A stretch of DNA of 64,000 bases from Candidatus Nomurabacteria bacterium. GTDB taxonomy: Bacteria; Patescibacteriota; Minisyncoccia; Phycocordibacterales; UBA9973. The notes beneath the pieces were generated by a model. It was given only the letters and a program-made list of their open reading frames with translations, was not told the origin of the DNA and made no database searches. The position numbers were made by a program, and so were the translations under genes. Where the stretch lies: NCBI GenBank assembly GCA_023267375.1, contig JAHFNJ010000005.1, forward strand, positions 1,285 through 65,284. The letters run 5' to 3'. Position 1 is the first letter of the stretch. Every line of letters starts with the position of its first letter. This document shows positions 207 to 34,303 of the stretch, piece by piece.

Positions 207-2507
207 ATGCTTCATGTCAATCGTCAAATAATAAAAGTGTGCAAGCAGCGGCTTTTTTCGTACACGAAAAGTGTTCGCGGTTTTACGCTTATTGAAGTAG
301 TTTTGGTGATTGCTGTGATAGCCATCATTTCAGTTGTTAGTATCCCGCTTTCGCAATCTATCATCGAGCAGAATAATCTCAACTCAGCTCTTGATGTTAT
401 TCGTACTGATTTAGTGAGTGCACGATCGTTCGCTACTTCAGGAAAAAATAATACCTCTTGGGGTGTTCATATTGAGGCAAATAACGTTACGCTTTTTTCT
501 GGTTCTTCATATGGAGAGAATCCTGATTTTGATCAAACGGAGGCAATTCCTCGGTCTATTACGATAGAGGGGACACTACTTTCCGGTCGCACTATTGATA
601 TTGTGTTTTTGGAATGGTCCGGGCTCCCTGTATTGGAATCTACTTCTGGAACAATCACGCTTACTACAGCTAGTGGTAAACAAAAAACACTTACAATCAA
701 TTCGCAGGGAGTGGTTTATTTGTCTCAAAATGTCTCAATTGTGGAAGTGTCGTGTCATGCGGCGTATTCGGGTGATTGGTCAAGCGGTAGTGCCAACAAT
801 GGAAATGGTATTTGGCGCGGGTGTCATGGATCAGGGGGAACTCCAGCGCAAGACGAAAATATCACGATTGATGATGGAGTTGCAGTATCGATTGACACCG
901 CTCTTTCAAAAGATTTTGGTGATATTACAATTCTGGGAACACTCACTAACAATAGCGGGTCAGGATTGGTTGCACGTTCATTAACAACTCAAAGTAGTGG
1001 TTCGTATACATCATTCGGGACGACCGTAACGCTTGGCGGGAACACGGGGACGCTGGTGACTGTCGATGATGGAAGTTCGATTGATTCAAGTACTCATTTT
1101 ATTATTACGAGCGATGCTGATATTCAGGTATTTGGCGGAACCAATATTGATTCCTTTTTTTCTGGGTTCTCAGGGTCAATTACTTTTTCTCCAACACTTT
1201 CTACTGCGAGGCAGTATGTCTTGGCTGATGGAGGACATTCTATTAGTAATGCGTTTAATATTCTCTCAACTTCTCATAGCGGAGGAGTATTAACACTTAC
1301 CATTGCTGGTAGTAACACTATCGATTCTTTGCATCTCACAAACAGTGGCGACGATGCGGTGCTCCTTCTTAGTGGGGCCAATACTATCAATACAACTACG
1401 TTACTTAATTCATCAGAAAATAAACGATTATCTCTAGGGACATGGGGTGAACAAATCTTGAATGATATTTCTCTGACTGCTGGGGCGCAGGATAGCACTA
1501 TCTTTTTTTCACCGGAGAGTTCGAATACTTACGGTTCGTTTTCAGCTACGGGGAGTGTCTCGTTGAATGCGCAGGTATCTTTTTTACCGAGTGCTGGTCT
1601 TACTCAGACATTTTCCGGTTTGATAAACTTTGGTGAAAATACTAATTTTGTAATAATTGCACCATTAGTTGATTTTTCGAATATTCCGTCACTCTCTTTC
1701 TATAATTTTACTATCCAAAATAATGGCTTTCCTGTCACGGCGACATTTCCATATGCAGTTACTACTGTTATTGCCAACAATTTTATAGTGACTGGTACAG
1801 CTGAAAATAGTATTACGCTCATTTCAAGTGATGATATTACACCGACGCAATTTCAGATTGCTGGTGATGCAAGTAAATTTACTGTTACGTATGCCGACAT
1901 AAAAGATGCTGGTTGCGCAGAGATAACGGGAACGGGAATTGGGACTGACGGGTTTATTACAACAGATACCTCTGTTGATTCTGGTAATAATGGTACCTGC
2001 TGGTTTAACCATGGTATCGATCAGTCTCAGACAACACTCGATGGTAACAACATTTCAATTGGGAAGACGAGCGGCAATGGTATTCATCGAATTGCACAAT
2101 CATTTATTCCGTCAGTCGGCACCGTCTCTGGTTTTTCTCTTTCAAAGTTTACTGGGGATACAAATGAAGGAGTAATTAGTGGTGACGTTATCGTTTCAAT
2201 AGAAGCAGATGATGGATCTGGGCACCCCGACCATACTCCTATTGTTTCTTATACGATTGCAAATCAAGATTGGATTGGTTTGTCGGAAGGTCCATTCTCG
2301 TTTTCCTTCGATACACCAGGATCCCTTACTGTTGGTAATACATACTATTTAGTTGTTGAGGCAACAAGTGCGGATAACTCAAATTATGCAAACATTGACA
2401 TCAATATAAGCGATCTTTATGCAAATGGCAGCCTCTCAATATTTGATGATGCTGGTCTTGTGCAAAACTATTCAGGATACGATCTGTATTTTGCAGTTTC
2501 TTATTAA
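207..2507 (+). CDS. Prepilin-type N-terminal domain protein with large (~700 aa) C-terminal region; minor pilin / pilus-tip adhesin candidate
   Basis: 766-aa ORF. N-terminus has a class III signal peptide: ...RGFTLIEVVLVIAVIAIISVV (G|FTLIE with Glu at +5). It is Ser/Thr/Gly-rich. Its C-terminal ~145 aa are homologous to the C-terminus of the next ORF. It contains a Cys motif YADIKDAGC...DSGNNGTCW shared with the 1897-aa protein. Confidence 0.6.
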   Translation: MLHVNRQIIKVCKQRLFSYTKSVRGFTLIEVVLVIAVIAIISVVSIPLSQSIIEQNNLNSALDVIRTDLVSARSFATSGKNNTSWGVHIEANNVTLFSGSSYGENPDFDQTEAIPRSITIEGTLLSGRTIDIVFLEWSGLPVLESTSGTITLTTASGKQKTLTINSQGVVYLSQNVSIVEVSCHAAYSGDWSSGSANNGNGIWRGCHGSGGTPAQDENITIDDGVAVSIDTALSKDFGDITILGTLTNNSGSGLVARSLTTQSSGSYTSFGTTVTLGGNTGTLVTVDDGSSIDSSTHFIITSDADIQVFGGTNIDSFFSGFSGSITFSPTLSTARQYVLADGGHSISNAFNILSTSHSGGVLTLTIAGSNTIDSLHLTNSGDDAVLLLSGANTINTTTLLNSSENKRLSLGTWGEQILNDISLTAGAQDSTIFFSPESSNTYGSFSATGSVSLNAQVSFLPSAGLTQTFSGLINFGENTNFVIIAPLVDFSNIPSLSFYNFTIQNNGFPVTATFPYAVTTVIANNFIVTGTAENSITLISSDDITPTQFQIAGDASKFTVTYADIKDAGCAEITGTGIGTDGFITTDTSVDSGNNGTCWFNHGIDQSQTTLDGNNISIGKTSGNGIHRIAQSFIPSVGTVSGFSLSKFTGDTNEGVISGDVIVSIEADDGSGHPDHTPIVSYTIANQDWIGLSEGPFSFSFDTPGSLTVGNTYYLVVEATSADNSNYANIDINISDLYANGSLSIFDDAGLVQNYSGYDLYFAVSY

Positions 2508-2542
2508 CGGTAAGAAGTAAAAATTTTTTTTCTAATGGTACA

Positions 2543-3508
2543 ATGAAGTACGTGGTTAAACAGCCTTATCACAATACTGCCGGTTTTACGTTAATTGAGC
2601 TCATGCTTGCCGTGGCGCTTTTAGGACTCGTGGCACTCGGTATTTTTTCGGGCGTTTTGTTTGGACAACAAAGTATTACCAATGCTGGTACGCGCAACCG
2701 TACCACAGCTGTTGCGAATGCTACACTTGATATCGTACGCGGGTTGCGCAGTCAGATTTTTGACACCAATACCATACTTGCTGATGGGACGTATGGACTA
2801 GAGAGAAGCACCGGGCGGTGGTTGCTCGATGTGAGCAATTACGGCACAGGGGATACAAACGATTCGACGGGGCTCTATCGGGAGATTGCCATTGATCGAT
2901 CCACCAACCCAGATCAAGCAAAAATAAAAATAACAGTCTGGTCATCAGGAGACAGCAATAGTAGTACCACCCAACCACTCTCTGTTTCCACTATTGTTTC
3001 AAATTGGGAGTCCTTTGTTGATCAACAGCAAGTCTCGCAAGATTCAGCGCTCTCGTTTGGAGAAGGTACTACGACCGGTTTTACGTATGGCATTGTGCAA
3101 TCGTTTGTACCAACGGTGAGTTCTATTTCGGGTGTACGTTTGTACAAAAAAGCAGACACAGGATCTTTTACTGCTGGCGTTCAAGTTTCAATATATGCTG
3201 ATGCTGGTGGAGTCCCAGATATTGGTAGCCTTGTCACGCAGCAGAGTGGGACTTCGTTGGAACTTACTGATTGGTGGGCAAGTCTCGATGTCGGCGTTTT
3301 TTCTGTCGATTTACCTGATGCTGGTTTGACTCCTGGGAATACATACTGGATCGCTGTGGAACCGACTGCTGTTGATATTTCTGGGTCGACGCATCCAAAT
3401 CTTGGTGTCTATTCATCTGGTGGATACGGGGATGTTGAAACGTATAATGCCGATGATGGATGGAGTGTTCCAACAGGGGAGAGTTTTTATTTTGAAACAC
3501 TGTATTAA
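2543..3508 (+). CDS. Prepilin-type N-terminal domain protein (minor pilin candidate) with C-terminal domain shared with upstream ORF
   Basis: 321 aa. N-terminus is ...TAGFTLIELMLAVALLGLVALGIF (prepilin cleavage/methylation motif). C-terminal ~145 aa align with the C-terminus of ORF 207-2507 (QSFVPTV..G..L....TG...G..V.I.AD.GG.P....G.TY...VE.T). Confidence 0.6.
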   Translation: MKYVVKQPYHNTAGFTLIELMLAVALLGLVALGIFSGVLFGQQSITNAGTRNRTTAVANATLDIVRGLRSQIFDTNTILADGTYGLERSTGRWLLDVSNYGTGDTNDSTGLYREIAIDRSTNPDQAKIKITVWSSGDSNSSTTQPLSVSTIVSNWESFVDQQQVSQDSALSFGEGTTTGFTYGIVQSFVPTVSSISGVRLYKKADTGSFTAGVQVSIYADAGGVPDIGSLVTQQSGTSLELTDWWASLDVGVFSVDLPDAGLTPGNTYWIAVEPTAVDISGSTHPNLGVYSSGGYGDVETYNADDGWSVPTGESFYFETLY

Positions 3509-3513
3509 AATAT

Positions 3514-4815
3514 ATGGATACTCAAGCAAATAATAATAAAAAATATTATCGCAAGATTTTAAAGAAGAGAATGAAGCCTAGCGCTACAGGCTTTACGCTC
3601 ATGGAAATCATGCTCTATATTGCTGGTCTCTCACTTATTGTGCTCGCCATTTCCGCTTTGTATGTTATTACGCAAAAAACGAGAATTAAAACGGAGGCGA
3701 TTACCGCAGTAGAAGATCAAGGAGTCTTTATTTCTGATTTTATTACACACAAAATCCATGACGCTGTTAGTTTGACAACGCCAGCTACTATTGGGGCAAG
3801 CGCGTCCTCGCTCCAATTTGTGACATCTACTGGTACCAGTGCCACTATTGGTGTCGACACTGATAGTGGCATTCCGTATTTCCAAAATAGTACGACGTTT
3901 AATTTGTCGGATGATAGGGTAAAGCTTTCCCCTCGCATATATGCTATCAGCGAGAGTTTATCGTTGCTAGAGTACGATAATGGATGGAAAAATAAATTCT
4001 CCATCGATTGCTGTGGACTTGTGCATATAGCTTCTGATAAATATGGAAACTTATATATCTCAATAGGGGACGAAAACAAAGTATTTAAATATAATGGAAA
4101 AACTGTAAGTGCTCTTGGAGATGCTAGTGACGGGTTAAATTATCCCATAGGGATGGCTGTCGATTTTTTCGGGAATCTCTATGTTGCGAATCGTGATAGC
4201 AGTTCAATAGTAAAGTATGATGGTGCTTCTTGGAGTGAATTTGCAAATGCGGGAGATAATATAAGTGTGCCCACGGGTGTGGCTATTGATTCTCAAAATA
4301 ATATATATGTAGCAAATATCAATAGTTCTGATAATACAATTCTAAAATATGATGGTATCTCCTGGACTAGTATTGCTTCGGTTTCGGATTTTGGCACAAC
4401 CCCACTTGATATTGCTGTTGATTTATTGGATAACGTATATGTGAGTATTCCTGGAGCGGGGGCAATTATGAAATATGATGGACTTTCATGGGTTGCTATC
4501 GGTTCCCCTAGCGATGGTCTAACATCACCTAGTAGTATTTCTATAGATGCATTTAATAATGTATATGTAAATAATCAAGAAGGCTATGGTTCCATTTTAA
4601 AATACGATGGCTTATCATGGGCCACGATAATACCCGAAAGTAGTGATACCCCTCTATCTTATGGGATTGGTGCGGTTGGTCCCATAACATTTACTCGTGA
4701 TTCGGCAGATACTATCTCATATCGTTTTACGCTTAGTTCCAATACGACCAATACTGGCAATGAATATCAATATTCAAAAACATTTACCGGTACCGCATCA
4801 CTTCGGGTAAACTAA
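3514..4815 (+). CDS. Prepilin-type N-terminal domain fused to NHL-repeat beta-propeller
   Basis: 433 aa. N-terminus is ...TGFTLMEIMLYIAGLSLIVLAISALYV (pilin-like). C-terminal half has 5-6 NHL-type repeats (NLYVANRDSSSIVKYDG; NIYVANINSSDNTILKYDG; NVYVSIPGAGAIMKYDG; NVYVNNQEGYGSILKYDG). The 3' half is AT-rich. Confidence 0.6.
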   Translation: MDTQANNNKKYYRKILKKRMKPSATGFTLMEIMLYIAGLSLIVLAISALYVITQKTRIKTEAITAVEDQGVFISDFITHKIHDAVSLTTPATIGASASSLQFVTSTGTSATIGVDTDSGIPYFQNSTTFNLSDDRVKLSPRIYAISESLSLLEYDNGWKNKFSIDCCGLVHIASDKYGNLYISIGDENKVFKYNGKTVSALGDASDGLNYPIGMAVDFFGNLYVANRDSSSIVKYDGASWSEFANAGDNISVPTGVAIDSQNNIYVANINSSDNTILKYDGISWTSIASVSDFGTTPLDIAVDLLDNVYVSIPGAGAIMKYDGLSWVAIGSPSDGLTSPSSISIDAFNNVYVNNQEGYGSILKYDGLSWATIIPESSDTPLSYGIGAVGPITFTRDSADTISYRFTLSSNTTNTGNEYQYSKTFTGTASLRVN

Positions 4816-4838: not shown

Positions 4839-5801
4839 ATGTATCGAATGAACATTACTACGTCAAATACTACTGGTGGATATATTGCCCTTATGACGGT
4901 TATTATTGTGGCGACAGTTATTTCTGCTATCAGTGTGTCGATGCTTGCAAAGGGGACAAGTAGTTCCCAAGAAAGTTTGTCCGCATTACAGTCACAGCAA
5001 TCTCTTGCCTATGCAAGTGGGTGTATCGAAGCAGTACTCCTTGATTTAAAAACTGGCTCTACAACAGCCAACCAATATTTCCCTTCAGCAGATTTGTATC
5101 CGCTCACTGGAGTAGATATTAATGCTTTAGTAACACAACCTGTGTTACTTGAAAATCCAAATGGTGATGATTGCACCTATGCACTCGATTTAACAAATTT
5201 CTCTCAATTGAATACGCTGGCAACTGGTTCGATTACGGCGACAGGTTTTTCTGGTCCCGTCTCGAGTCAGATCGTCGCGACATTTTCAGGTAATCTCGAA
5301 AGTACTGAACCGATGATTATTAGTAACCTGTCCATCACTACATGGCATGAAAAGCCATATTTAAGTTTAAGTGTTTCCGATTCAAACGATGTTTTTGCTG
5401 TTTGGGAAGAAGACTCAGGAGATGTTCGTTGTGATGATTTGTCGACTGTCTGCGCAAAAACCTACACGATCGCAAACAATGGCGACAGTACGTTGACCTA
5501 TGATGTCACTGCGGATAAAAGCTGGGTCGTATTAGGTGGTGATCCATCGACGGGGACGTTGGGTGGTGGGCAGACTGCCACGATTCAAGTTTCTATTTCA
5601 ACCGATACATTACCTGATACACTGGCAACATCACCAACGTATCCAACGACGCCGATTGCAACTGCGACAATACAATTTGGTTTTGTGAGTTATCAAAATG
5701 GTGCCGGCGCAACAACACGCACGGTCAATTTTATGGTGCCTTCCGGGGTGACTGTCGGGAAGGCTGGTGCTACCATAGAAGGACTAGTTGCTATAAGATA
5801 A
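4839..5801 (+). CDS. PilX-like minor pilin / pilus assembly protein
   Basis: 320 aa. N-terminus is ...GGYIALMTVIIVATVISAISVSMLAKGTSSSQESLSALQSQQSLAYASGCIEAVL, which resembles the PilX N-terminal domain architecture (short leader, hydrophobic helix, then conserved A/E/G-rich segment). The rest is Thr/Ser-rich. Confidence 0.45.
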   Translation: MYRMNITTSNTTGGYIALMTVIIVATVISAISVSMLAKGTSSSQESLSALQSQQSLAYASGCIEAVLLDLKTGSTTANQYFPSADLYPLTGVDINALVTQPVLLENPNGDDCTYALDLTNFSQLNTLATGSITATGFSGPVSSQIVATFSGNLESTEPMIISNLSITTWHEKPYLSLSVSDSNDVFAVWEEDSGDVRCDDLSTVCAKTYTIANNGDSTLTYDVTADKSWVVLGGDPSTGTLGGGQTATIQVSISTDTLPDTLATSPTYPTTPIATATIQFGFVSYQNGAGATTRTVNFMVPSGVTVGKAGATIEGLVAIR

Positions 5802-5804
5802 AAC

Positions 5805-8800
5805 ATGGCTGAAACATATACAATTAGAAATGGTGCGCTCAAGAAAGTGTTTTCTTTTTTTTCAAAGCGCAGCAAACTCTTTTTTACCATAGGGGTTTGT
5901 ATGTTTCTTTTTCTCGCCTCACCACACTCGGCATTTGCGGTGAATACTTGTGTTTCAAATGCAAGTGGTAACTGGAATACTGCAGCGACGTGGACTTCTT
6001 GTAGTAGCACTGTGCCACAAACAGGGGATTCAGTAAGAATTAGTAGCGGTCATTCAGTGGTAATGGATGTCGATACACCAGTACTTGGAAATGTGACAGT
6101 AAGAGGAACACTCAATACGTCAGATGGTGTAACGAGTCATACTCTCTCAGCTTCTCAGCTTTTTGTTGGAGAAAGTCTCGGAGGATATAACGGTACCTTT
6201 ATTGCTAACTCTTCTACTATCAATCTTTCAGGGACATCTGCTGTGTTGAGTATTCAAACAACTAGTAGTATTTTTACCTATGGCACTTCTACTGTAAATT
6301 TCACTGGTAACAGTGTTTCAGGTATGATTAATTTAGCATCTTCAGGTTCAGTTACCTTGTATAATGTAAACTCATCAGGAACCGGCACAAAGACAATAAG
6401 CTTAGCGAACGCTACCATCACAATTGCTAATGTCTTTACTATTTCTGCAGGCACTGTTGCGTTTTCAACAGCTGTGACCTCTGCGAACCTCATACTTTCA
6501 GGCACTACGGGTACACCACTTAATCTTACTGGTGGAAGTTTTACGGCCACAGGGAACAACACTACCGTTACGTATTCTGGAAATAATGCCGCGGGTAATA
6601 CCACTGTTGCCGCAGCTACATATGGCTCTTTGACTTTAAATAACAGCAGTGAGAGGTATCAACTTGGCGGAGATATTACTGTGGGTGGTACAACTATTAT
6701 ATCGGCCAGCACCGAGTTTACTTCGAGTGATGGGACAGATCATAACTTAACCACTGGCGGTCTTGTTATTTCCTCAAATGCGCTCTTCCTCATGAATAGT
6801 TCGACTATTACTATTACAGGTAATGCAAATACTGTTGCTAGTCAATTTACAAATTCTTCCAGTCGCCAAGACGCGATTGCTGCCGGAACCTCTACTATTA
6901 AGTTTACTGATACAAGTGTCTATTCTAAAACAATGAGCTCTGCTACTGCCACCTTTTATAATCTTTGGATAACTGGAACTGGAACTGGAACATATACTAT
7001 TACTGGGAGTGGTAGTAGCTCTTTTACTTTTAACGACATAAAAGATGATAATACTTCTGCGCATACGGTTAGTTTAAATTCAACCATATATGTAAACACC
7101 TTTAATGTTTCTGGGGCGGATAGTTCGCATAAAATTTCACTTACAAAGGCTGGTGGGGCAGGTGTTCTACATAAGACGAGTGGGTATGTAAGTATTGACT
7201 ATGTGAATATCGCGAACCTTACAGCTCAAGGTGGTGCTGCGTTTTATGCTGGTTCACACAGTACTGATAACGGAGGTAATTCTGGATGGATTTTTGGAGA
7301 TCCTTCATGCACAGCAACAACAAGCGGTGATTGGAATACGGGAGGGAATTGGACTGGTTGCTCGGGCGGTGGCGGTATTCCAGGAACATCAGATAACGTG
7401 ATAGTTCCTTCTGGAATAAATCTCACACTGAGCACGAACACAGCTACACTTGGAAATGTAAACGTGGCTGGCTCGATTGACACAACTGGCTCAAACTACG
7501 CAATCAATGCAGCGGGGCTTGTTATAAGTTCAACAGGTACAGTTATTGCAAATGGTTCAACTATTACACTCTCAGGTACGGGGGCGGCATTTTCTCTTTA
7601 TGGGGGGATATTTAGTGCCGGAACTTCAACAATTAATTACACAAACAGTTCAAGTGCTGCTAAAGCATTTACGGGTGGCAACGGAACATTTAATAATGTT
7701 ACTTTTACTACCGGTAGTACAGGAACATATACTATTACGGGTAACAATACATTCAACATTTTCTGGATTACTGGAACAGGGACAGGAACGTTTACATTTT
7801 CTAGTTCTTCCAATACTTTTACTGAACTAAAAGATGATAATACTTCTGCTCATTCCATCTTTGGAAATTCTTCTACGCAAACAGTGACAACTTTTTCTGT
7901 ATCGGGTGCCGATAGTTCGCATAAAATAAACTTTGGTTTAAACGTTTCAAAATCAAGTGGGGTTGTTGTTGCAAATTACCTGACTCTTACTGGTAGTGTT
8001 GCGAGCGGTGGGGCCTCGTGGTATGCCGTAAACAGTAATAATGGGGGCGGTGGAACATCAGGTTGGGTTTTTATTAGTGGTTGTGTAGCGATAACAACAG
8101 GAAATTGGAATACGGGAAGTAATTGGAGTGGTTGTACTGGTGGAGGAGGGGTTCCGGCGGCTGCGGACACTGTCACCATTGTATCTGGTGTAACAACTAC
8201 ACTTGATGTAGCGACTCCTGTTGTCACTGGCCTCACTGTTTCTGGCACGCTTGATACTAGTGTCACAAATTATGCACTCAATACAACGACACTCACCATT
8301 AGTTCCGGGGGAACGCTTACTGCTAATGGTTCAACCATTACACTTTCTGGAACTTCTGGAACGCTGTTTACAAACTCAGGTACTTTTACTGCAGGTACTT
8401 CGACGGTCGATTTCTCTGGAGCGAGTTCCGTAACTCTTAATTCTGGATCAATTACATTTTATAACCTCACTGTTTCTGGTGGCACTGTTGCAACAGTCAA
8501 AACACTCGGCGCCGCCACTACGCTTGCCTCTGGTGGTACGCTGACTGTTTCTGCGGGGACATTTGATCCAAGTACGTATCTTGTTACTGGTAATGGTTCA
8601 AACACTCTGGTTGTGGCTGGTGGAGCGGTTGCTCGAGTGAAAGCATCTACGTTTACAGGGAATTATTCATCGGGTTTCAGTAGCACTTCGTTTGCCGCCA
8701 ATTCCACTATTGATTACACCTTAAACGGTACGCAGACAGTTGATAGCACTATAAGTTATGTTAATTTGACGGTTTCAACGGGAGGAACAAAATCGTTGAA

Positions 8801-11498
8801 CGGATCGACTGTTGCCACGGGCACGACTACAATTAGTTCTGGGGCGACACTTACTACTACCGCGTCAAATTATGCGCTATCGACCGGGACGATTTCAATT
8901 GCTGGTACGCTCACTGCGAATGCCGCTACTATCTCGCTCTCGGGGACAGGTTCACTTTGGACAAAAACTGGAACGTTTACTCAAGGAACCTCAACAATAA
9001 AACTCACGGATGCATCTTCATCGAGTAAAACATTTGCAGGTGGTGGTGGAACGTTTTATAACTTCTGGATTTCTGGAACTGGTACTGGAGCATATACTAT
9101 TTCAGGTTCGAACACCTTTTCTACTTTTAAGGATGATAATACTTCAGCACACACCGTAAACTTTACTGCGAGTACAACACAAACAGTAACGACGTGGACT
9201 GTTTCTGGTGCAAGTAGTTCAAACAAGATTACAATGCAGAGTACTTCTTCTGGTAGTGCATGGAATTTGTCGAAATCAAGCGGAACAGTTACTTCAAATT
9301 ATTTGATTTTGCAAGATAGTCATGCTGCCGGTGGGGCAACCTGGAATGCAAACGGTAGTACAAATGTATCGGGGAACACCGGTTGGAATTTTGGCACGGT
9401 TTCTTGTACCTCAGTAGCTACTGGAGCTTGGAACACTTCTGCTACGTGGGATTGTAGTCATGTGCCTGCAACTGGTGAAACTGTTACCATCGCGGCTTCT
9501 CATGTTGTGACAATGGATGTTAATTCAGCGGTGCTCGGTTCTATTACTATTAGTGGAACCCTGACGACGAGTGCGAGTAATTACAGTTTGTCTGGAACAA
9601 CGATCACTATCGGTTCTAGTGGAACACTCACTGCCAACAGTTCAACCATTACGCTTTCTGGAACCTCTGGAACGTTGTTTACAAAAACAGGAACATTTAC
9701 AGCTGGGTCATCAACGGTGGTACTTTCAGGAAATGGATCTGCATCGGTAAATTCAGGTTCTATAATTTTCTACAATCTGACTTCTTCAGGGACAGGAACT
9801 AAAACAATTACAGGAACTACTGAAGTTGGTGGTGTGCTTACTGTTTCTGCTGGAGTATTCAGACTCAGTTCCGGTACGCTGGTACTTTCCGGAATTTCTG
9901 GGACACCAATTGTAAATTCAGGGACGATAAGTACTTTAAGCGCGACTACTGTTGTTTTTAGTGGTGATAATCCAGGGGGTAATACCACCATTCCTTCGTC
10001 AATCTCTTACTACAACCTCTCTTTTAATGGTACTGACACATACGATCTTTCAGGTGAAACAACCGTAAATGGGTCATTAGCAATTTCACAAGGAACTCTT
10101 TCTGCAGGGGCGCAGTATCTCAACGTTGCTAGAGATTGGATAAACTCCGTTGGAGTAGGTGGTTTTAGTGCTGGCACAGGGAGAGTTATCTTAAATACTG
10201 CTAATGACAGCACTATTACTGGCGCAACAACTTTTAATGATCTGACTATTTATTCTACTGGTGGTAAAAATGTATACTTTTCATATCAGGGTGGCGACAT
10301 TATCACTGTTGGTGGATCATTTGTTGTTACTGGATCTTCTGGGTCTCTTGTGTATCTCCGTTCAACGAGCTCGGGAAGTCAGTGGCATCTTTTGCCACAA
10401 GGTTCAGCGACGGTTGACTACGCCGACGTGATGGATGGTGGTTGTGAATCAGGAGCAATCACTATCACTGACAACCTTACAGATACTTCGATTGATTCGG
10501 GCAACAATGATTCATGCTGGTCATTCTTTGTGTCGCCTGCGGTGCGGTACATGCTTACGTCTGCAAATACTATGGATGTGTACGGCATCGGTGGTGGTTA
10601 TGGAGGATCGCCCGCGAGTCCGACTAAAATCCGTTCAGTTGCGCTTTCTGGTGGTTATACGCGCGTACAGCCAAAAAGTATTTTTGCTGAGGGGAGAACT
10701 GGTCGCATTTATGTGGCAACTAGTGATTCAAATGGGGAACTGCAAGTTTATGAAACAAATAATTATAACGGTTCAGGAAGTTCACCATCAAATCCGAAGT
10801 TGCTCACTACATACAATGCTTCTGTTTCTGGTACTGGAAATCGAGTTTGGGCGGATAGTGCCGGGAACGTGTTACTTGCCGTGTCGTCTGATACCACTGG
10901 CTCACTCATACTGCTTAACTCGAGCGGGGAAGCTGTTTCAAGTGCGAGTGCCCCAGCTACTATAAGTGATATCGCTGTGTATAAAGATACCGGTAGTACT
11001 GGATATGTGTATGTGGGTTCAGATGATACAACACTCCATATTTATTATTTTGATTCAGGTGGGGTGTATGACACAGGTAGCACTTTTGATATTGCGGTTG
11101 CTTCTCCGTATATAACTTCAGTAACAGCAGGCTCAGGCACAAAACTTGCGTACACTACTCTTGGTTCTGATCAGCTCTATTTAACAAATGATATTTCTCT
11201 CGATCCCGCGAATGCTAGTAATTCGTTGGTAACCGCTGAGAACTCTTCACTAGACACAGAGGTCCAAGGAGCTATCACTGCTTCAAGTTTGGGTGAGGTG
11301 CTCTTTGTTCCCGGTGCTGATGGGCTCTATCAGCCATATGTAAGTAATATTGCGGTGATTATTAATCCAGGAAACTACGCACCCTACACTCTCTCTGGGG
11401 GATTGACTGGTGTCTTTTATGATTCGACTGCAGTACATCTTTTTGGTTCTTCCGCTGTTGATGGGACGATACATTCGTTTGAACCGTATATACCGTAG
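5805..11498 (+). CDS. Giant (1897 aa) secreted repetitive surface protein; putative adhesin of the pilus locus
   Basis: Signal peptide ...FLFLASPHSAFA|VN. Four ~300-450 aa tandem modules each begin with a G(N/D/A)WNT..(N/T)W..C motif. Three internal sub-repeats of the form F(Y/N)(N/I)FWI(T/S)GTGTG...DDNTSAH...SGA(D/S)SS(H/N)KI were found. The unique C-terminal ~400 aa contains YADVMDGGCESGAITITDNLTDTSIDSGNNDSCW, shared with ORF 207-2507. Ser/Thr/Gly/Asn-rich. Confidence 0.7.
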   Translation: MAETYTIRNGALKKVFSFFSKRSKLFFTIGVCMFLFLASPHSAFAVNTCVSNASGNWNTAATWTSCSSTVPQTGDSVRISSGHSVVMDVDTPVLGNVTVRGTLNTSDGVTSHTLSASQLFVGESLGGYNGTFIANSSTINLSGTSAVLSIQTTSSIFTYGTSTVNFTGNSVSGMINLASSGSVTLYNVNSSGTGTKTISLANATITIANVFTISAGTVAFSTAVTSANLILSGTTGTPLNLTGGSFTATGNNTTVTYSGNNAAGNTTVAAATYGSLTLNNSSERYQLGGDITVGGTTIISASTEFTSSDGTDHNLTTGGLVISSNALFLMNSSTITITGNANTVASQFTNSSSRQDAIAAGTSTIKFTDTSVYSKTMSSATATFYNLWITGTGTGTYTITGSGSSSFTFNDIKDDNTSAHTVSLNSTIYVNTFNVSGADSSHKISLTKAGGAGVLHKTSGYVSIDYVNIANLTAQGGAAFYAGSHSTDNGGNSGWIFGDPSCTATTSGDWNTGGNWTGCSGGGGIPGTSDNVIVPSGINLTLSTNTATLGNVNVAGSIDTTGSNYAINAAGLVISSTGTVIANGSTITLSGTGAAFSLYGGIFSAGTSTINYTNSSSAAKAFTGGNGTFNNVTFTTGSTGTYTITGNNTFNIFWITGTGTGTFTFSSSSNTFTELKDDNTSAHSIFGNSSTQTVTTFSVSGADSSHKINFGLNVSKSSGVVVANYLTLTGSVASGGASWYAVNSNNGGGGTSGWVFISGCVAITTGNWNTGSNWSGCTGGGGVPAAADTVTIVSGVTTTLDVATPVVTGLTVSGTLDTSVTNYALNTTTLTISSGGTLTANGSTITLSGTSGTLFTNSGTFTAGTSTVDFSGASSVTLNSGSITFYNLTVSGGTVATVKTLGAATTLASGGTLTVSAGTFDPSTYLVTGNGSNTLVVAGGAVARVKASTFTGNYSSGFSSTSFAANSTIDYTLNGTQTVDSTISYVNLTVSTGGTKSLNGSTVATGTTTISSGATLTTTASNYALSTGTISIAGTLTANAATISLSGTGSLWTKTGTFTQGTSTIKLTDASSSSKTFAGGGGTFYNFWISGTGTGAYTISGSNTFSTFKDDNTSAHTVNFTASTTQTVTTWTVSGASSSNKITMQSTSSGSAWNLSKSSGTVTSNYLILQDSHAAGGATWNANGSTNVSGNTGWNFGTVSCTSVATGAWNTSATWDCSHVPATGETVTIAASHVVTMDVNSAVLGSITISGTLTTSASNYSLSGTTITIGSSGTLTANSSTITLSGTSGTLFTKTGTFTAGSSTVVLSGNGSASVNSGSIIFYNLTSSGTGTKTITGTTEVGGVLTVSAGVFRLSSGTLVLSGISGTPIVNSGTISTLSATTVVFSGDNPGGNTTIPSSISYYNLSFNGTDTYDLSGETTVNGSLAISQGTLSAGAQYLNVARDWINSVGVGGFSAGTGRVILNTANDSTITGATTFNDLTIYSTGGKNVYFSYQGGDIITVGGSFVVTGSSGSLVYLRSTSSGSQWHLLPQGSATVDYADVMDGGCESGAITITDNLTDTSIDSGNNDSCWSFFVSPAVRYMLTSANTMDVYGIGGGYGGSPASPTKIRSVALSGGYTRVQPKSIFAEGRTGRIYVATSDSNGELQVYETNNYNGSGSSPSNPKLLTTYNASVSGTGNRVWADSAGNVLLAVSSDTTGSLILLNSSGEAVSSASAPATISDIAVYKDTGSTGYVYVGSDDTTLHIYYFDSGGVYDTGSTFDIAVASPYITSVTAGSGTKLAYTTLGSDQLYLTNDISLDPANASNSLVTAENSSLDTEVQGAITASSLGEVLFVPGADGLYQPYVSNIAVIINPGNYAPYTLSGGLTGVFYDSTAVHLFGSSAVDGTIHSFEPYIP

Positions 11499-12080: not shown

Positions 12081-12635
12081 GTGGGTATGAACAATAAGAA
12101 AATCAAAAGAGTTTTACATAAAGGTTTCACCCTTCTTGAAATCCTCCTTGTTGTTGCGGCAATTGCTATTTTGGCGGCAGTTGTTATTCGGGCGCTCAAT
12201 CCATCAAAACAGCTTGCTGATACGCGAAACTCGCAACGATCACTTGATTTGAATACCATTGTGAATGTTATCTATCAATACGAGATTGATAATAAAGGAG
12301 CTCTTCCTGATACTGATGCTAATGGGGGAGTCCTCATTCCGGTTGGCACCTATGATGCATCTGACCCAGACAATATCATCGATGACTCAGTAGAAATATG
12401 TCGATCGACAAGTACTGCAGATTGTGCAACAAATGGGCTCGTTGATTTATCTCCACTGCTTGAAAATAAAAAGTATATCGTTGCCATCCCAAACGATCCT
12501 TCCAACACCGATCCCGATGGCACCGGGTATTTCATTGTACAAGATTCAGAAAGTAACCGTATTACAGTGATAGCTCCAAACACAGAGCTTGAGCCAACAA
12601 CGTCGCTTCTAGTGCCACTCAACGCTTCTTTGTAA
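12081..12635 (+). CDS. pilA: Type IV major pilin (PilA-like), paralog 1
   Basis: 184 aa. Begins ...KGFTLLEILLVVAAIAILAAVVIRALNPSKQLADTRNSQRSLDLNTIVNVIYQYEIDNKGALP, a classic class III signal with G|FTLLE and a conserved N-terminal alpha-helix. C-terminal globular part is divergent. Confidence 0.8.
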   Translation: MGMNNKKIKRVLHKGFTLLEILLVVAAIAILAAVVIRALNPSKQLADTRNSQRSLDLNTIVNVIYQYEIDNKGALPDTDANGGVLIPVGTYDASDPDNIIDDSVEICRSTSTADCATNGLVDLSPLLENKKYIVAIPNDPSNTDPDGTGYFIVQDSESNRITVIAPNTELEPTTSLLVPLNASL

Positions 12636-12735: not shown

Positions 12736-13347
12736 ATGAAAAAGAAATTAGGTTTATCATTTCGAAATAACAAAGGCTTCACTCTCCTTGAAATCCTCCT
12801 TGTTGTTGCGGCGATCGCTATTTTGGCGGGTATTGTTATTTTGGCGATAAATCCAGGTAAACAACTCGGCGATACTCGTGATGCGCAACGTAGAGTTGAT
12901 GTAAATACAATCTTGAATGCAATTTATCAATATGCTATCGATAATGGAGGCGCTTTCCCAGGAGATCTTGATGGTAGCAACAACTGTATCAGTGGCAATA
13001 CGTGTGTATCTGGTGCAATTGCGATTCCAGAAGGTACCGCGCCAACTCTTCCACTTGTTATAGATCCATCGGATCTTTCTGTTGATTCAGGCGATGTCGG
13101 TGCTGCTGTTGAGATTTTGAAGTACGACGGTACTTGTGATGCTTCTGGTACTGGATTGGTTGATATTTGTACTGATCTAACAGAAGATGGTGTGTATCTC
13201 GCTGGTATTCCTAATGACCCTTCGCTTAACACTACTGTTGATCCTCATGGTACTGGATACTGGATTTACAAGACCAGCAGTGGCCGTATTACCGTGATTG
13301 CTCCGTTTGCCGAACAAGCAGCGAGTGGTATTAGTGTGACGCGTTAA
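12736..13347 (+). CDS. pilA: Type IV major pilin (PilA-like), paralog 2
   Basis: 203 aa. Begins ...KGFTLLEILLVVAAIAILAGIVILAINPGKQLGDTRDAQRRVDVNTILNAIYQYAIDNGGAFP. The N-terminal ~75 aa and the underlying DNA (about 12123-12180 vs 12775-12832) are near-identical to paralog 1; the C-terminus is divergent. Confidence 0.8.
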   Translation: MKKKLGLSFRNNKGFTLLEILLVVAAIAILAGIVILAINPGKQLGDTRDAQRRVDVNTILNAIYQYAIDNGGAFPGDLDGSNNCISGNTCVSGAIAIPEGTAPTLPLVIDPSDLSVDSGDVGAAVEILKYDGTCDASGTGLVDICTDLTEDGVYLAGIPNDPSLNTTVDPHGTGYWIYKTSSGRITVIAPFAEQAASGISVTR

Positions 13348-24241: not shown

Positions 24242-24389
24242 AATGCGAGCGAAGCAAGACAACTGCTTGTCTTGCGTTGGGATTTGAACAGCGGAGCTAT
24301 GTTTTACAAGCTTGCAAAACAAGCGAGCTGGTGCCCAGACCGAGCCGAGTGGCGACGAGGCGAGAGTCGCGGGAAAATCCCATCGCTTA

Positions 24390-24433
24390 CACACATAAGA
24401 AAATTCCCATAAAAAGGAATTTTCTTATGTGTG
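24390..24433 (+). promoter_or_regulatory. Perfect 18-bp stem hairpin 35 nt upstream of the AsnB-like gene start
   Basis: CACACATAAGAAAATTCC-cataaaaa-GGAATTTTCTTATGTGTG: 18/18 complementary pairs with an 8-nt loop. No clean T-run follows, so it is more likely a regulatory or protein-binding structure than a terminator. Confidence 0.4.
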
Positions 24434-24468
24434 GTCGAAAATATTTTTTATCTGCTATAATTCTCAAC

Positions 24469-27400
24469 ATGTGTGGCATTACTGCAGTTTTCAATTCTAG
24501 TAACTCAGAATTAAAAGCCAATAAATCTCTAGAAAAAATCCAACATAGAGGAGGTAGTACTTTTGAGCTGGAAACATTTCCAAACGCAACTATCGGCGCT
24601 AATCGTTTGCCTATAGTTGGAAGACTCTCTGGAAAGCAACCTCTCCATAATGAAGACAAGACTATTTTTGCAGTTCAGAATGGTGAAATTTTTAATCATA
24701 AAGAATTACGTGCTGAACTTGAAAAACTGAATCATGTTTTTTCATCTGAATCAGATACAGAGGTTCTCGTGCATGCGTACGAAGAATGGGGATCTGAAAT
24801 GGTATATAAGCTGGATTCGGAGATGTATGCATTTATTGTATACAACACAAAAACTAAAGATATCTTCGCCGCTCGTGATCCACTTGGAGTAAAACCTTTT
24901 TATTACACAAAAACTAAAGATGGAGAAATATTATTTGCTTCAGAGTTGAAGCAGCTAGTGCAATTTGAAAACGTAACTACAGTGAATGAATTTCCACAAG
25001 GTAGCTATTACTTCAATGGAAAATTCACTAAATACTTTAAAATAGAAGATCCAAAAACGAAGCTTTCCGAAACTTCCGCTATTCGTTTGCTTGAAAAAAA
25101 TATTGTTGAGGCAGTGAGAAAACGAGTAGATACAGATTTACCTATCGGTGTCTTTTTAAGTGGAGGAGTTGACAGCTCTCTTGTTATGGAAATCGCGACG
25201 CGTTTTCATCCGGATGTCACTGCTATTATTTTAGGAAATACCGGTTCTTCGGATTATGAATTTGCTCTACGTCTCTGTAAGGACCGTGGATACAAATATC
25301 AGATAGTATCTCCAAATATCGACTATAAACAAGAGCTTGATGAGGTACTCTATTACCTGGAAACATATGAGCCATTGGTGATTCGGCAAGGATTTGCCAA
25401 CTGGATTTGTTCTCGTGAAGCACAGAAGCTCGGCTTGAGCATTGTTCTTGTTGGCGAAGGAGCTGATGAATTGTTTGCTGGATACAATGAGTTTTCTGCT
25501 CTGTCAGATAATAATATAAATAAGGGGTGTAAAATGCTTACTGAAAATCTTGGCAAAGGCCATCTCAAGCGAGTTGATCGTGGGGCGATGCGTTTTACCG
25601 TAGAAGTAAGATCTCCCTTGTTAGATACCAAAGTCATTGATACCGCGTTTAAAATCAAAGGAGATTTAAAAATTAAAAAAGAAAATCATCGTGTTACTAC
25701 AAAATATATTCTTCGCAAGGTGGCTGAAAACTTTCTACCAGACTACATTGCATGGCGCTATAAGATGCCTTTTGCTAATGGAGCCGGAATGAATGTGGGT
25801 TATAACTATAAATCTGGCGATGGTGCGCTTGGAGAAATAACTAAATCATACAAGACTACAATTGATTCAAAAACCGCAAAAGAATTTAAACTCGAAACCC
25901 CAGAAGAGAATTATTACTTCCAAAAGTTTAAGGAATTTGGCTACGCAAAGCTTGCCGAAGCAAAGGACCGAATAATAGTAAAAGACATTCTACAAACCCT
26001 CAATACCTCAAAAAAGCAGAGGATTGTTGTGGCAGAGTTCGGAAAGTTAGCTCTTTATTTTCCTGTATATTTAGCTGCACAAAAGAAAATTTTTGATATG
26101 CATGAGTTGGAGGTTGATTTCATTGCAACTGGTGGCGACGATAAAACATACGCGACCCTGTTGAACAATTCAGGACAAATAGGTCTTTCTGACCCTCTAT
26201 TCGCAATGTTTGAAGACGGAATAAACATGAATGGATACGGTGAAATAATTGGAGAGTTGGTTCACTCAACTCCAATTGTTGCAGTAACACTTAACCCAAA
26301 GATTACTATCAATTCACTTCAGGATTTTTCTCAATATAAGGTTGGATCTTTTCAAAAATACTCCACGACAAACACCGTAGCTTCGTATCTTTTGAAAAAC
26401 CAAAACATTTCTGCCTATGACTTTAAAGAGTTTCCAAGCAAGCTAGTTGATAGAGAGATCGATATCGCCGTAGTACTGCTTGAACAAGCACTTAATATCG
26501 AAGCATTAGGTGGCAGAATCGTACACGATTTTAGAAACGATATGTCTCAATACCTATTTTCTGGTTTTACAATTGCTTCGACGTTACCTAAAAATGTAAG
26601 GGGTAAACTTCCTAGTTTCACTTCAGCTATTAAAGAAGCTTTGAAGTACATCAAATTCAATCAAGCAGATGCTGTTGCTGAATTTAGAGCATTGTTCCCA
26701 GAGTTGATAAACCCAGAAAAAGTATTACTTGAATACCAAAAGTTTTGGGTCCAGAGTCTTAAAATCAACAGAGAAGACTATCTCAAGTCGCACACTACGT
26801 GGAAAAGCTTGTACCCAAACATACTTAAGAATCATGACCTCCCTTACTACCGAAGTTATTCAGACGCAGATAAAATCCTAGATACGATAAATGCCCGGGC
26901 AATTCGTAGAGAATATCCATATCGTGAAGATAAGCTTATTGAACTAATAAATAAAAAAATCAGCACAAAAGAACCACTTACTTTTTTTGGTTTTTGGGGT
27001 GCAGGACCAAAAAAAGATACGGATGATCGCGATAAACGAACCTTGGACTATCTCGCTCAGTACATCTCGAACTTAAACAAAGTATATAAAAATGGAGTTT
27101 CTGTGACTTTTATATTAGCGGACAAGCATGCTGAAAATAACGAGTACGACAAATCAAATATTGGCCCATACATTCAACAAGTAAAACAAGAGATGGCAAA
27201 TCGTGGGTTTAAAACGGTTTTACTGTCCGATATCTGGAAAAAATATGACCTTACCCGCGATAAAGTTGTTTCCACACTTAATTCCAAGCCAAAAGGATGG
27301 TGGCAGAAGATTTCCATTGCAAAAAAACTAGAAGAGAAATCCAATGAATATTTCAATGGAGCTGACAAGTTACTTGGTGCACAGCGCTATTATGTATTAA

Positions 27401-27561
27401 GAGATCTAGAAAAAAGAATACTAAAACAAGAGTATCCGGACTCAATATTCTTTGTATATGGAGACAGTTTTGCCCAGCAAATCTATCCGGATATGCCTAC
27501 TCTGTATTTCTTTACTGAAAAGATCTATTACGGCAATTGTCCTTGGTTTAATCTTGATTAG
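24469..27561 (+). CDS. Asparagine synthetase-like class II glutamine amidotransferase fused to a ~500-aa C-terminal extension (NMT1/THI5-like periplasmic-binding-fold segment plus unknown domain)
   Basis: 1030 aa from the MCGITAVFN start (Ntn Cys2 nucleophile). The PP-loop is VFLSGGVDSSLVM and the AsnB C-domain is ...GEGADELFAGY.... Residues ~560-800 (...IVVAEFGKLALYFPVYLAAQKKIFDMHELEVDFIATGGDDKTYATLLNNSGQIGLSDP...) resemble SsuA/NMT1-type binding domains. The last ~200 aa are unassigned. AT-rich (~35% GC). The track start at 24277 is an upstream extension through the hairpin. Confidence 0.7.
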   Translation: MCGITAVFNSSNSELKANKSLEKIQHRGGSTFELETFPNATIGANRLPIVGRLSGKQPLHNEDKTIFAVQNGEIFNHKELRAELEKLNHVFSSESDTEVLVHAYEEWGSEMVYKLDSEMYAFIVYNTKTKDIFAARDPLGVKPFYYTKTKDGEILFASELKQLVQFENVTTVNEFPQGSYYFNGKFTKYFKIEDPKTKLSETSAIRLLEKNIVEAVRKRVDTDLPIGVFLSGGVDSSLVMEIATRFHPDVTAIILGNTGSSDYEFALRLCKDRGYKYQIVSPNIDYKQELDEVLYYLETYEPLVIRQGFANWICSREAQKLGLSIVLVGEGADELFAGYNEFSALSDNNINKGCKMLTENLGKGHLKRVDRGAMRFTVEVRSPLLDTKVIDTAFKIKGDLKIKKENHRVTTKYILRKVAENFLPDYIAWRYKMPFANGAGMNVGYNYKSGDGALGEITKSYKTTIDSKTAKEFKLETPEENYYFQKFKEFGYAKLAEAKDRIIVKDILQTLNTSKKQRIVVAEFGKLALYFPVYLAAQKKIFDMHELEVDFIATGGDDKTYATLLNNSGQIGLSDPLFAMFEDGINMNGYGEIIGELVHSTPIVAVTLNPKITINSLQDFSQYKVGSFQKYSTTNTVASYLLKNQNISAYDFKEFPSKLVDREIDIAVVLLEQALNIEALGGRIVHDFRNDMSQYLFSGFTIASTLPKNVRGKLPSFTSAIKEALKYIKFNQADAVAEFRALFPELINPEKVLLEYQKFWVQSLKINREDYLKSHTTWKSLYPNILKNHDLPYYRSYSDADKILDTINARAIRREYPYREDKLIELINKKISTKEPLTFFGFWGAGPKKDTDDRDKRTLDYLAQYISNLNKVYKNGVSVTFILADKHAENNEYDKSNIGPYIQQVKQEMANRGFKTVLLSDIWKKYDLTRDKVVSTLNSKPKGWWQKISIAKKLEEKSNEYFNGADKLLGAQRYYVLRDLEKRILKQEYPDSIFFVYGDSFAQQIYPDMPTLYFFTEKIYYGNCPWFNLD

Positions 27562-32300: not shown

Positions 32301-32539
32301 CTACGAATATGTTGGCTTCGTACGAGCTGGGGCAGTCAAGCTTTACTGCTTCAGGTATTGATGGTGGTCTTGGAGGACCAAATGCGAAAGGTTTACATGC
32401 ACCGTTTGGAATTGACTTCGATCCTGCAACTGGGAAACTCTTTGTTGCAGAACAAGATAACAACATCATCAAGATCTTTGATGTGACAACTCTCTCTAAC
32501 TATATGTCTGCTGTGGATGAGATTGGACAGCCGCATTAG
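29360..32539 (+). CDS. Large secreted protein with Ig-like (Big) domain and C-terminal NHL-repeat beta-propeller
   Basis: 1059 aa. Signal anchor is LLVLGGIIVIAVILS. The Big-like domain is ...VSVFPTPNDTLSGITALKVQANDNVGVASVEYFVDGKSVG...YTLVAKALDLNGN. There are six or more NHL repeats (RIFVSDTNNNRVVVF; ILFVADSNNRVVTF; MLYIVDRNNSRVLGV; FLYISDTGSSRVLAY; LLYVADPGNN; KLFVAEQDNNIIKIF). Confidence 0.65.
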   Translation: MKNKTTLLVLGGIIVIAVILSTDHTFEKTLRGLGLTAGSGDASPVPYVPIKPTVVNFLEITQQTVKDNKKNIKADTHPPMIVSVFPTPNDTLSGITALKVQANDNVGVASVEYFVDGKSVGKSTTPPFIYMWDTTKVTTGSYTLVAKALDLNGNTTTSRGISFAVDNSDPFNKQKNKKKGGYPQFTSSDFAGQEGTSVCDCNIAVGPKDIVAVNNYSISTYDKNGVPTTSSISLEKFFDPTNTYIPGALFQMGSARAYFDDKSQKFFVTSISTSRTRADYTFLAVSQTSDPTGNWWVYPFSHPWDTGNNGFYKVSYPQLGVNATMVVITEKEAAGGVQLFIIDKATLITGSPAVYSLHNRNINESPWPPLTDELQLAPVREYDDNGVPLPMYLVARSGKGVVIYSIKGPAATATFTVVGNVIGPKSTVPVVMPPAPEPQAGGIDYVLLTNGYSDVSPTNNFVNDPVLRNNSLYYTYNINPTTGGGTGPSRISVYWAQIDMSAVPSGGAPIFVQDGLAADDPTGNMNYLFPALSVNECNDVGIGFSGSSSTTFPSTYYTSRASGDPLGYMSAPTLGHAGLSTFSSSTMWPFSDWGRYSGTHVDSSDNSFWTFQPFSPSPDVGKSISSRWAGWINNFSVPSVLGVPTFTTRYINWPVNSVNPASTTGLNSPTNVLVDAANQRIFVSDTNNNRVVVFKQSCGKYMVQYSLGQPTLTSNYENWDGVTAQSNVAASQYGLSYPGGLAYDAVRKILFVADSNNRVVTFNVDPATMTTGEPASYVLFGQPNFTAVQVNAGNLNPTANSLWDPRGLLYDDANKMLYIVDRNNSRVLGVGVTTLSNDMSATSILGQPVFTSNVPTVTPTGLWGPEFAVIDKTGHFLYISDTGSSRVLAYPLTAGNQLMTPIGQAASVVLGQTSFTTQMPNGGPTGTWTLPPTQSSLYIPYGLAFDQTKKLLYVADPGNNWDSYTASNNRIMVFNMSSGPSTNMLASYELGQSSFTASGIDGGLGGPNAKGLHAPFGIDFDPATGKLFVAEQDNNIIKIFDVTTLSNYMSAVDEIGQPH

Positions 32540-34172: not shown

Positions 34173-34287
34173 GGTTACAAAGAATTTTGATTGGTTAGTT
34201 TGCAACTATAATACTACATTTATATGACTATGTCAATATTCTGTTATTGTTCACTATACTTTGCAACCTCCTTAATCTAGTGAGAAC

Positions 34288-34296
34288 TGATATAAT
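34288..34296 (+). promoter_or_regulatory. Extended -10 element (TGaTATAAT) 7 nt upstream of ATG 34304; possible leaderless transcript
   Basis: tgaTATAAT at 34288-34296. The element overlaps the alternative ATG at 34295, which favours the MKNKKQ start at 34304. Confidence 0.35.
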
Positions 34297-34303
34297 GGAA
34301 TGT

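Follow-up and report, generated by a model that had tools for sequence, protein, structure and literature searches.

Two adjacent modular prepilins of a Nomurabacteria bacterium share a C-terminal domain related to a domain of phage tail-fiber proteins

We analyzed a 64,000-nucleotide (nt) stretch of DNA, hereafter the window, from Candidatus Nomurabacteria bacterium (assembly GCA_023267375.1, contig JAHFNJ010000005.1, positions 1,285 to 65,284). It carries two consecutive open reading frames (ORFs) on the forward strand, ORF1 (207..2507, +) and ORF2 (2543..3508, +), encoding prepilins of 766 and 321 amino acids (aa), respectively, that end with the same domain. Both ORFs exist as described in an original prediction made from the DNA without database searches. 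ENA contig L008, from its position 7459 onward, matches the window with 100% identity. It opens with the 3′ end of a PilC-type platform gene (T2SSF, PF00482; 1..158, +; 6531..7616 on L008), and further upstream, beyond the window on L008, genes encoding a PilB-type ATPase (MshEN and T2SSE; PF05157 and PF00437) and a response regulator (RR) are found. Type IV filament machinery (PilB- and PilC-type genes) therefore lies directly upstream of ORF1, and the order of the genes is RR-PilB-PilC-ORF1-ORF2-ORF3-ORF4-ORF5, followed at some distance by two GspG-like pilins. GyrB is 75–82% identical to proteins of metagenome-assembled genomes labeled Nomurabacteria, Paceibacteria, or Patescibacteria, which indicates that the organism is a Paceibacteria-type bacterium of the candidate phyla radiation (CPR).

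The sequence features of prepilins, a short hydrophilic leader ending with a glycine, a phenylalanine or methionine at +1, a glutamate at +5, and a hydrophobic stretch of about 20 residues, are found in ORF1 and ORF2. The class III signal peptide of ORF1 (207..350, +) consists of a 25-aa leader ending at G25 and is followed by F26, by E30 at position +5, and by a hydrophobic α1N helix. Its leader/mature junction reads MLHVNRQIIKVCKQRLFSYTKSVRG/FTLIEVVLVIAVIAIISV (...SVRG/FTLIE), and the N_methyl motif (PF07963) covers residues 21–44. Mature pilins of the PDB align with ORF1 from residue 26, that is, mature residue 1. In ORF2, a 14-aa leader ends at the G14/F15 junction (...NTAG/FTLIE) and the glutamate is E19. 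Both proteins score above the curated cutoffs of PF07963 (24.1 bits for ORF1 and 30.4 for ORF2; cutoff 21.2) and TIGR02532 (23.7 and 22.4 bits; cutoff 16.3), in agreement with the pilin-like nature first attributed to them. The N-terminus of ORF1 is weakly similar to GspH/ComGD and that of ORF2 to GspI/XpsI/PilV. ORF2 is bimodular, and ORF1 combines a pilin module, a G8-type/β-rich middle region, and the C-terminal domain. Residues 183–285 of ORF1 (753..1061, +) form a G8-type repeat unit similar by BLASTP to three repeats of the giant ORF5 protein encoded further downstream (E = 5e-12, 1e-7, and 2e-4). ORF1 and ORF5 thus have a second, G8-type module in common.

As initially noticed, the C-terminal segments of ORF1 and ORF2 align with each other. 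In a BLASTP comparison of the full proteins with composition-based adjustment, residues 604–766 of ORF1 and 159–321 of ORF2 align over 171 columns with 33% identity, a score of 53.9 bits, and E = 4e-12. Serine, threonine, and glycine account for 33–36% of both segments, and such a composition would be expected if the similarity were a chance or compositional artifact of two Ser/Thr/Gly-rich sequences. We rule out this explanation, to which we give a negligible probability, on the basis of four results. The E value is composition adjusted. The real pair scores 52.4 bits, against a mean of 13.9 (standard deviation 2.6, maximum 21.9) for 300 shuffles of the residues of the ORF2 segment compared with the ORF1 copy, that is, ∼14.6 standard deviations over the mean. 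A profile of both copies, searched exhaustively with HMMER against 1.84 billion representative proteins, retrieves 224 proteins at E ≤ 1e-10 (342 at E ≤ 1e-3) with the same boundaries and motifs. Finally, a deep alignment of these relatives yields a confident predicted fold, described below.

The shared C-terminal domain is longer than the ∼145 aa first proposed. According to the family boundaries it measures ∼163 aa. Its first residues form a conserved motif, DQSQ/DQQQ, which places its start at nt 2016 (ORF1) and nt 3017 (ORF2), ∼16–22 residues upstream of the start originally given. The first copy occupies positions 2016..2504 (+; ORF1 residues 604–766) and the second positions 3017..3505 (+; ORF2 residues 159–321). 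The ORF1 copy, a predicted lectin-like β-sandwich, is the more diverged of the two, with 31 of the 53 family-conserved positions kept versus 39 of 53 in the ORF2 copy. A search of the six-frame translation of the window with a hidden Markov model of the two copies did not reveal a third one.

The 342 representatives define a family with the conserved motifs DQSQ..., QSF.P, G..L.K, AD..G.P, G.TYW, T.D, and YF. Architectures and placements were compared for the best 150 of them, nearly all of which cover the profile from positions 1–2 to positions 167–171. Among these 150 proteins, a prepilin motif occurs in ORF2 only. The remaining 149 have the domain at an internal position, followed by a median of 230 residues. 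The domain is thus modular, as predicted, since hundreds of unrelated proteins contain it within identical boundaries, but its C-terminal placement is not a trait of the domain itself. ORF1 and ORF2, which combine a pilin module with an extra domain found in 149 nonpilin proteins among the 150 best matches, correspond to the definition of modular pilins (PMC8179133). ORF2 was retrieved by the exhaustive search and ORF1 was not, although it contributed to the profile and is a called gene on the ENA and Logan contigs L008 and L009; the representative of its cluster may lack the C-terminus. A scan of GTDB genomes with ORF2 and one of JGI metagenomes with ORF1 yielded no relatives and no other pilin fusion.

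Carriers of the domain are mosaic proteins. Their N-terminal regions fall into three clusters (129, 14, and 3 members) and their C-terminal regions into ∼20 (82, 23, 15, and fewer), some of them Gly-rich tails, and the central domain is conserved with a median pairwise identity of 57%. In P0003, P0015, and 13 other members of C-terminal cluster 2, as in the carrier at 9000..10544 of contig L097, the domain precedes a long glycine-rich tail matching Gly_rich_2 and PHROG 863 (“tail fiber assembly”), which indicates that it has been combined with several distinct distal modules. Most carriers have no match in PHROGs. By full-length profile matches with common boundaries and motifs, the ORF1 and ORF2 copies belong to this unnamed family of central domains of phage tail fibers (alignment A2).

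The original prediction stated that the domain could not be assigned to a known family. This holds for Pfam, in which neither pilin copy has a match, but a nearest curated family exists. NF041539 (“choice-of-anchor R”), a family built from surface proteins of cells whose C-terminal sorting signals are of alternative types, is the sole curated model matching the copies, at scores below its 30-bit cutoff (ORF1, 27.7 bits, E = 2.2e-6, 124 of 155 model positions; ORF2, 15.5 bits, E = 0.013). It is also matched by 33 of 59 family members at E ≤ 0.01. On these sequence grounds the relation is most likely one of distant homology and not of membership. Two Pfam families were each hit by a single one of the 59 members, PF13313 (DUF4082) at E = 3.9e-4 and PF18560 (Lectin_like) at E = 1.1e-3. 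The pilin copies themselves match neither at E ≤ 10 and hence are not members. DUF4082 resembles the family in its motifs (x-S/K-F ... G-x-R/L-[FL]-Y-K ... G-x-x-Y). Word-indexed homolog searches returned nothing for the ORF1 domain, only ORF2 itself for the full-length ORF2, and only four short fragments for A2. Sequence searches of the PDB with profiles of 2 and 59 sequences gave nothing credible; a match to a “needle protein” (E = 0.07) was dismissed.

Among viruses, only uncultivated contigs carry the family: a typical member is present on seven IMG/VR viral contigs, and tblastn against 50,697 GenBank phage records gave no match. This relation to phage tail-fiber-like proteins is the main point missing from the original prediction. 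We examined ten carrier loci, seven of which contain phage hallmark genes. L003 encodes a major tail protein, a tape measure protein (TMP), Dit, a 345-aa protein, the carrier, and a lysin, and L095 similarly encodes PhageMin_Tail, SPP1_Dit, a 360-aa protein, and the carrier. In these two loci, the carrier gene follows TMP, Dit, and one other gene, which is the classical slot of the receptor-binding protein or tail fiber in siphoviruses. The carrier gene lies downstream of a capsid gene in L001 (major head protein and collagen-like tail fiber) and L090 (Phage_capsid_4 and YopX), and it is accompanied by neighboring genes for a terminase and an SU10 adaptor in L093, a holin and an SU10 adaptor in L096, and Terminase_3 in L097. 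Nothing can be concluded from the remaining three loci: L091 and L092 both represent the locus of carrier P0004 and show LPD38 only, and L094 is a short contig with no Pfam matches. The LPD38 (large polyvalent protein-associated) protein, of 2248 aa, is encoded two genes downstream of P0004 (13451..20197 in L091, 8724..15470 in L092).

Apart from the domain, the window and the phage contigs have no similarity. No nucleotide-level or spacer-like link was detected between them, and the window contains no array of clustered regularly interspaced short palindromic repeats (CRISPR). Among the window ORFs scanned, no phage gene was found. ORF1 and ORF2 are pilins of a cellular operon and not virion tail proteins, so that what they have in common with phages is the module and not its carrier.

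Of all relatives, P0002 (L090, 10001..12835), a phage protein of 944 aa, is closest to the pilin copies. It contains the domain twice in tandem, and the first repeat is 45% identical to the ORF2 copy. Its 39-kb contig also encodes a collagen-like protein and a glycosyltransferase/methyltransferase besides the capsid and YopX genes. By BLASTP, ORF2 matches phage carriers at E values from 2e-34 to 3e-20 and ORF1 at best at 2e-21, as compared with 4e-12 for one pilin copy against the other. A recent in-operon tandem duplication is excluded, as the copies share only 34% identity and neither is less similar to phage proteins than to the other copy. The sequences may fit an older duplication as well as two independent acquisitions. 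In a neighbor-joining tree, both copies group with the two P0002 repeats, but they have the longest branches and the grouping, which lacks support values and could be due to long-branch attraction, is not relied on. Since phages have a large and diverse set of family members and pilin fusions were detected in this lineage only, capture of the domain from a phage or surface-protein gene pool by the pilins would be the parsimonious direction of transfer.

The structure prediction proposed together with the original prediction was carried out with AlphaFold2. From the 59-sequence alignment, the domain is modeled with good confidence (pLDDT 88.7, pTM 0.86) as an all-β structure of 12 strands and one short helix, a β-sandwich akin to those of carbohydrate-binding domains. 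An earlier model from a two-sequence alignment was poor (pLDDT 60.4), and the fold search, done with Foldseek, was not based on it. In the PDB, the top matches of the predicted fold are three baseplate chains of Staphylococcus phage phi812 (E = 2.4e-7 to 2.4e-4, TM scores 0.62–0.70), followed by a capsid-associated chain of PBCV-1, the lectin-like domain of Cwp84 (TM 0.52–0.58), and a cyanophage capsid chain. Weaker matches comprise β-sandwiches of the PA14 (adhesin Cea1A), carbohydrate-binding module (CBM6/36), PHR, and GOLD types, with Cea1A and CBM6/36 in the TM range 0.3–0.58. In BFVD, there are 41 viral matches at E ≤ 1e-3 (TM up to 0.76, rmsd 2.8 Å), and those with a name are tail, minor-tail, or virion-associated proteins. 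In the phi812 tripod protein, the “leg” domain is a β-sandwich resembling the lectin-like domain of Cwp84 and may be a site of receptor binding, and the anchor and hook domains are not resolved after contraction (PMC13433997).

The genes following ORF2 encode further pilin-like proteins with additional modules. ORF3 (3514..4815, +) is a prepilin (G/FTLMEI) fused to an NHL/SBBP β-propeller and, with weak GspJ/PpdC matches, a candidate for the minor pilin of the GspJ/PilW position. ORF4 (4839..5801, +) has a GspK-like N-terminus without E5 (GG/YIALM) and an Ig/BACON-like region, and is a candidate for the GspK/PilX position (T2SS_GspK, E = 3.3e-4, far below cutoff; BACON_2, E = 5.5e-5, below cutoff). 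All four consecutive minor pilins, ORF1 to ORF4, carry extra modules. ORF5 (5805..11498, +) encodes a secreted giant of 1897 aa with a Sec-type signal peptide and four G8 domains, and is a candidate tip-associated adhesin. Its repeated unit ends with “...S.D.GGN.GW.F”, and its last 338 aa have no sequence match in the PDB. Two small GspG-like prepilins with N_methyl motifs, at 12081..12635 (+) and 12736..13347 (+), are candidate major pilins (TIGR01710, E = 1.7e-7 and 4.8e-7, respectively, both below cutoff). The succession of four minor-pilin-like genes, the last one without E5, and of a gene for a large secreted protein is suggestive, from the sequence, of a minor-pilin operon of the fimU-pilVWXY1 or GspH-I-J-K type, roles being assigned by position only. 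Similarly, ORF5 sits where PilY1 does in fimU-pilVWXY1 operons, a suggestive analogy by gene position only.

Elsewhere in the window, two large NHL-repeat proteins of surface type are encoded at 29360..32539 (+; Big_7, NHL, and an arylesterase-like domain) and 34247..35203 (+; NHL and BNR), making this genome region rich in β-propeller surface proteins. A 529-aa protein (32613..34205, −) ends with a Por_Secre_tail domain (35.2 bits, Pfam cutoff 27), a sorting signal of the type IX secretion system. As this system is a feature of Bacteroidota and the FCB group, the domain is unexpected in a Patescibacteria genome. An unusual protein of 1094 aa (24277..27561, +) fuses an asparagine synthase (GATase_7 and Asn_synthase) to an NMT1/THI5-like domain.

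The shared domain was originally suggested to have a ligand-binding or pilus-tip role. Such a role is plausible because the predicted fold is a lectin-like β-sandwich and because the order of the genes resembles that of tip-forming minor pilins. We therefore propose, with moderate confidence, that ORF1 and ORF2 are modular minor pilins presenting a phage-fiber-type, probably glycan-binding module at the tip of the pilus. In this model, a prepilin peptidase would cleave ORF1 behind G25 and ORF2 behind G14. Together with ORF3 (pilin and β-propeller) and ORF4 (GspK-like, without E5), the mature proteins would form a priming complex ending up at the filament tip, from which the C-terminal modules would consequently project. 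There they might bind carbohydrate on the surface of a partner or host cell, in the manner of an accessory carbohydrate-binding domain of a phage fiber.

Several observations weigh against this proposal. “Lectin-like” designates here a fold only. The correspondence of the phi812 chains matched by our model with the tripod protein gp119 is deduced from chain lengths, 1082 residues before contraction and 821 or 908 after (PDB 9euj, 9eui, and 9euf). The HPNxG..GGY..TDGW cluster has disappeared from the ORF1 copy, which, degenerate at conserved positions, may differ in activity from the ORF2 copy. The matches to GspH, GspI, GspJ, and GspK extend mostly over the N-terminal helix and are all far below the equivalog cutoffs (ORF1-GspH, 19.8 bits for a cutoff of 80; ORF2-GspI, 15.9 for 44.35; ORF3-GspJ type, 12.4 for 295; ORF4-GspK, 20.3 for 130). 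Two further points, the place of the domain in phage proteins and the incomplete set of pilus genes, each lead to a different interpretation of the locus.

Within phage fibers, conservation is found in the domain, which lies internally, and variability in the region downstream of it, a pattern expected for a shaft or accessory module and not for a determinant of specificity. The module could accordingly be structural, a conserved shaft, oligomerization, or assembly part of trimeric phage fibers which, on the pilins, would lock ORF1 and ORF2 together or serve as a spacer. This is the main alternative to a binding role, and we regard it as rather unlikely. It would fit the contrast between the conserved internal domain and the hypervariable downstream region, with its ∼20 clusters, and the presence of the module on exactly two adjacent pilins, at GspH- and GspI-like positions whose occupants are neighbors in tip complexes. 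However, the closest folds are those of binding domains of the lectin-like, CBM, or PA14 type and of the putative receptor-binding domain of phi812. The low identity between the copies (34%) and the loss of motifs in ORF1 are not expected of a symmetric interface, and known modular pilins bind through their grafted modules.

The second alternative concerns the filament itself. PilD, PilM, and PilT were not identified in the stretches examined (the scanned parts of the window for PilD, the prepilin peptidase), so that the filament could be a Com-like or type II secretion system (T2SS)-like pseudopilus and not an adhesive pilus. In such a filament, of T2SS-like or competence type, the target of the module would be DNA, a secreted substrate, or a polymer of the cell's own envelope. 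The N-termini of the pilins match Gsp and ComG pseudopilins as much as pilins, and PilB and PilC were the only machinery components seen beside them, which would fit this lesser alternative. On the other hand, an operon encoding bulky modules of surface type (β-propeller, Ig-like, and G8) together with a 1897-aa secreted G8 protein better fits an adhesive tip than a periplasmic piston, and the pili of cultivated CPR bacteria have been linked to host binding and motility (PMC11623550). We consider a pseudopilus to be quite unlikely here, and retain the display of a probable glycan-binding module at the tip of a pilus as the preferred interpretation.

How the ultrasmall CPR/Patescibacteria recognize their partners is little understood. 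The leading candidates are pili whose minor pilins are lectin-like, for which studies are limited to oral Saccharibacteria. The locus described here suggests that a Paceibacteria-type organism decorates its predicted pilus tip with several modules of binding type. One of them defines a new domain family of at least 224 clusters at 50% identity with no Pfam entry, and this shared module links the adsorption hardware of phages to pilus adhesins. A more specific scenario, which we judge quite unlikely, is that an episymbiotic CPR bacterium captured a host-recognition module of the phage pool, possibly from phages of its partner bacteria, on two tip pilins, and that pilus and tail fiber recognize the same glycan. 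If so, pairs of module-bearing phages and their hosts could predict the attachment partners of uncultivated CPR bacteria. Residues 604–766 of ORF1 and 159–321 of ORF2 provide concrete constructs for binding tests.

The best structural matches are the phage phi812 baseplate and Cwp84 (4ci7), the phi812 domain being described as a β-sandwich within the host-recognition apparatus of a phage. Their sequences are only 10–20% identical to the domain, and sequence profiles reveal no relation to it. In architecture, ORF1 and ORF2 resemble the modular pilins, which are widespread and whose modules have been proposed to be exposed at the pilus tip (Raynaud et al. 2021, PMC8179133). In Streptococcus sanguinis, PilC carries a proven lectin module within a tip complex (Shahin et al. 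2023, PMC9934059). Like ORF1 and ORF2, PilB (vWA) and PilC (ConA-like lectin) consist of a prepilin N-terminus and a grafted C-terminal domain known outside pilus biology. The two systems also resemble each other in having two modular pilins per locus, a lectin-type fold, and a proposed minor-pilin complex at the tip. They differ in the modules, ConA-like and vWA in the streptococcus and, in our CPR bacterium, a domain of another fold family absent from Pfam, and ORF1 has in addition G8-type/β-rich modules that distinguish it from the S. sanguinis modular pilins.

Among CPR bacteria, the minor pilins PilX1 and PilX2 of the saccharibacterium TM7x have C-terminal domains folded as a lectin-like β-jelly-roll and a β-propeller, respectively; deletion of PilX2 halves host binding, and glycans of the host wall matter (PMC11623550). 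These are, as here, minor pilins of a CPR bacterium whose C-terminal domains are similar to proteins that bind carbohydrates and, for one of them, to capsid proteins of viruses. ORF3, a pilin with a β-propeller, has the type of architecture of PilX2, without which binding to the host is inefficient (PMC11623550). The likeness to PilX1 is by description only. The TM7x pilins differ from ours in belonging to Saccharibacteria and not to a Paceibacteria-type organism, and in our locus a single module is shared by two pilins and its relatives are phage fiber proteins. Modular minor pilins with a lectin-like module were therefore already known, including in CPR bacteria, and the locus extends this theme. 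What it adds is an unannotated domain family with a confidently predicted fold, the presence of the same module on two neighboring pilins, and the homology of this module to the central domain of tail-fiber-like proteins encoded by uncultivated phages.

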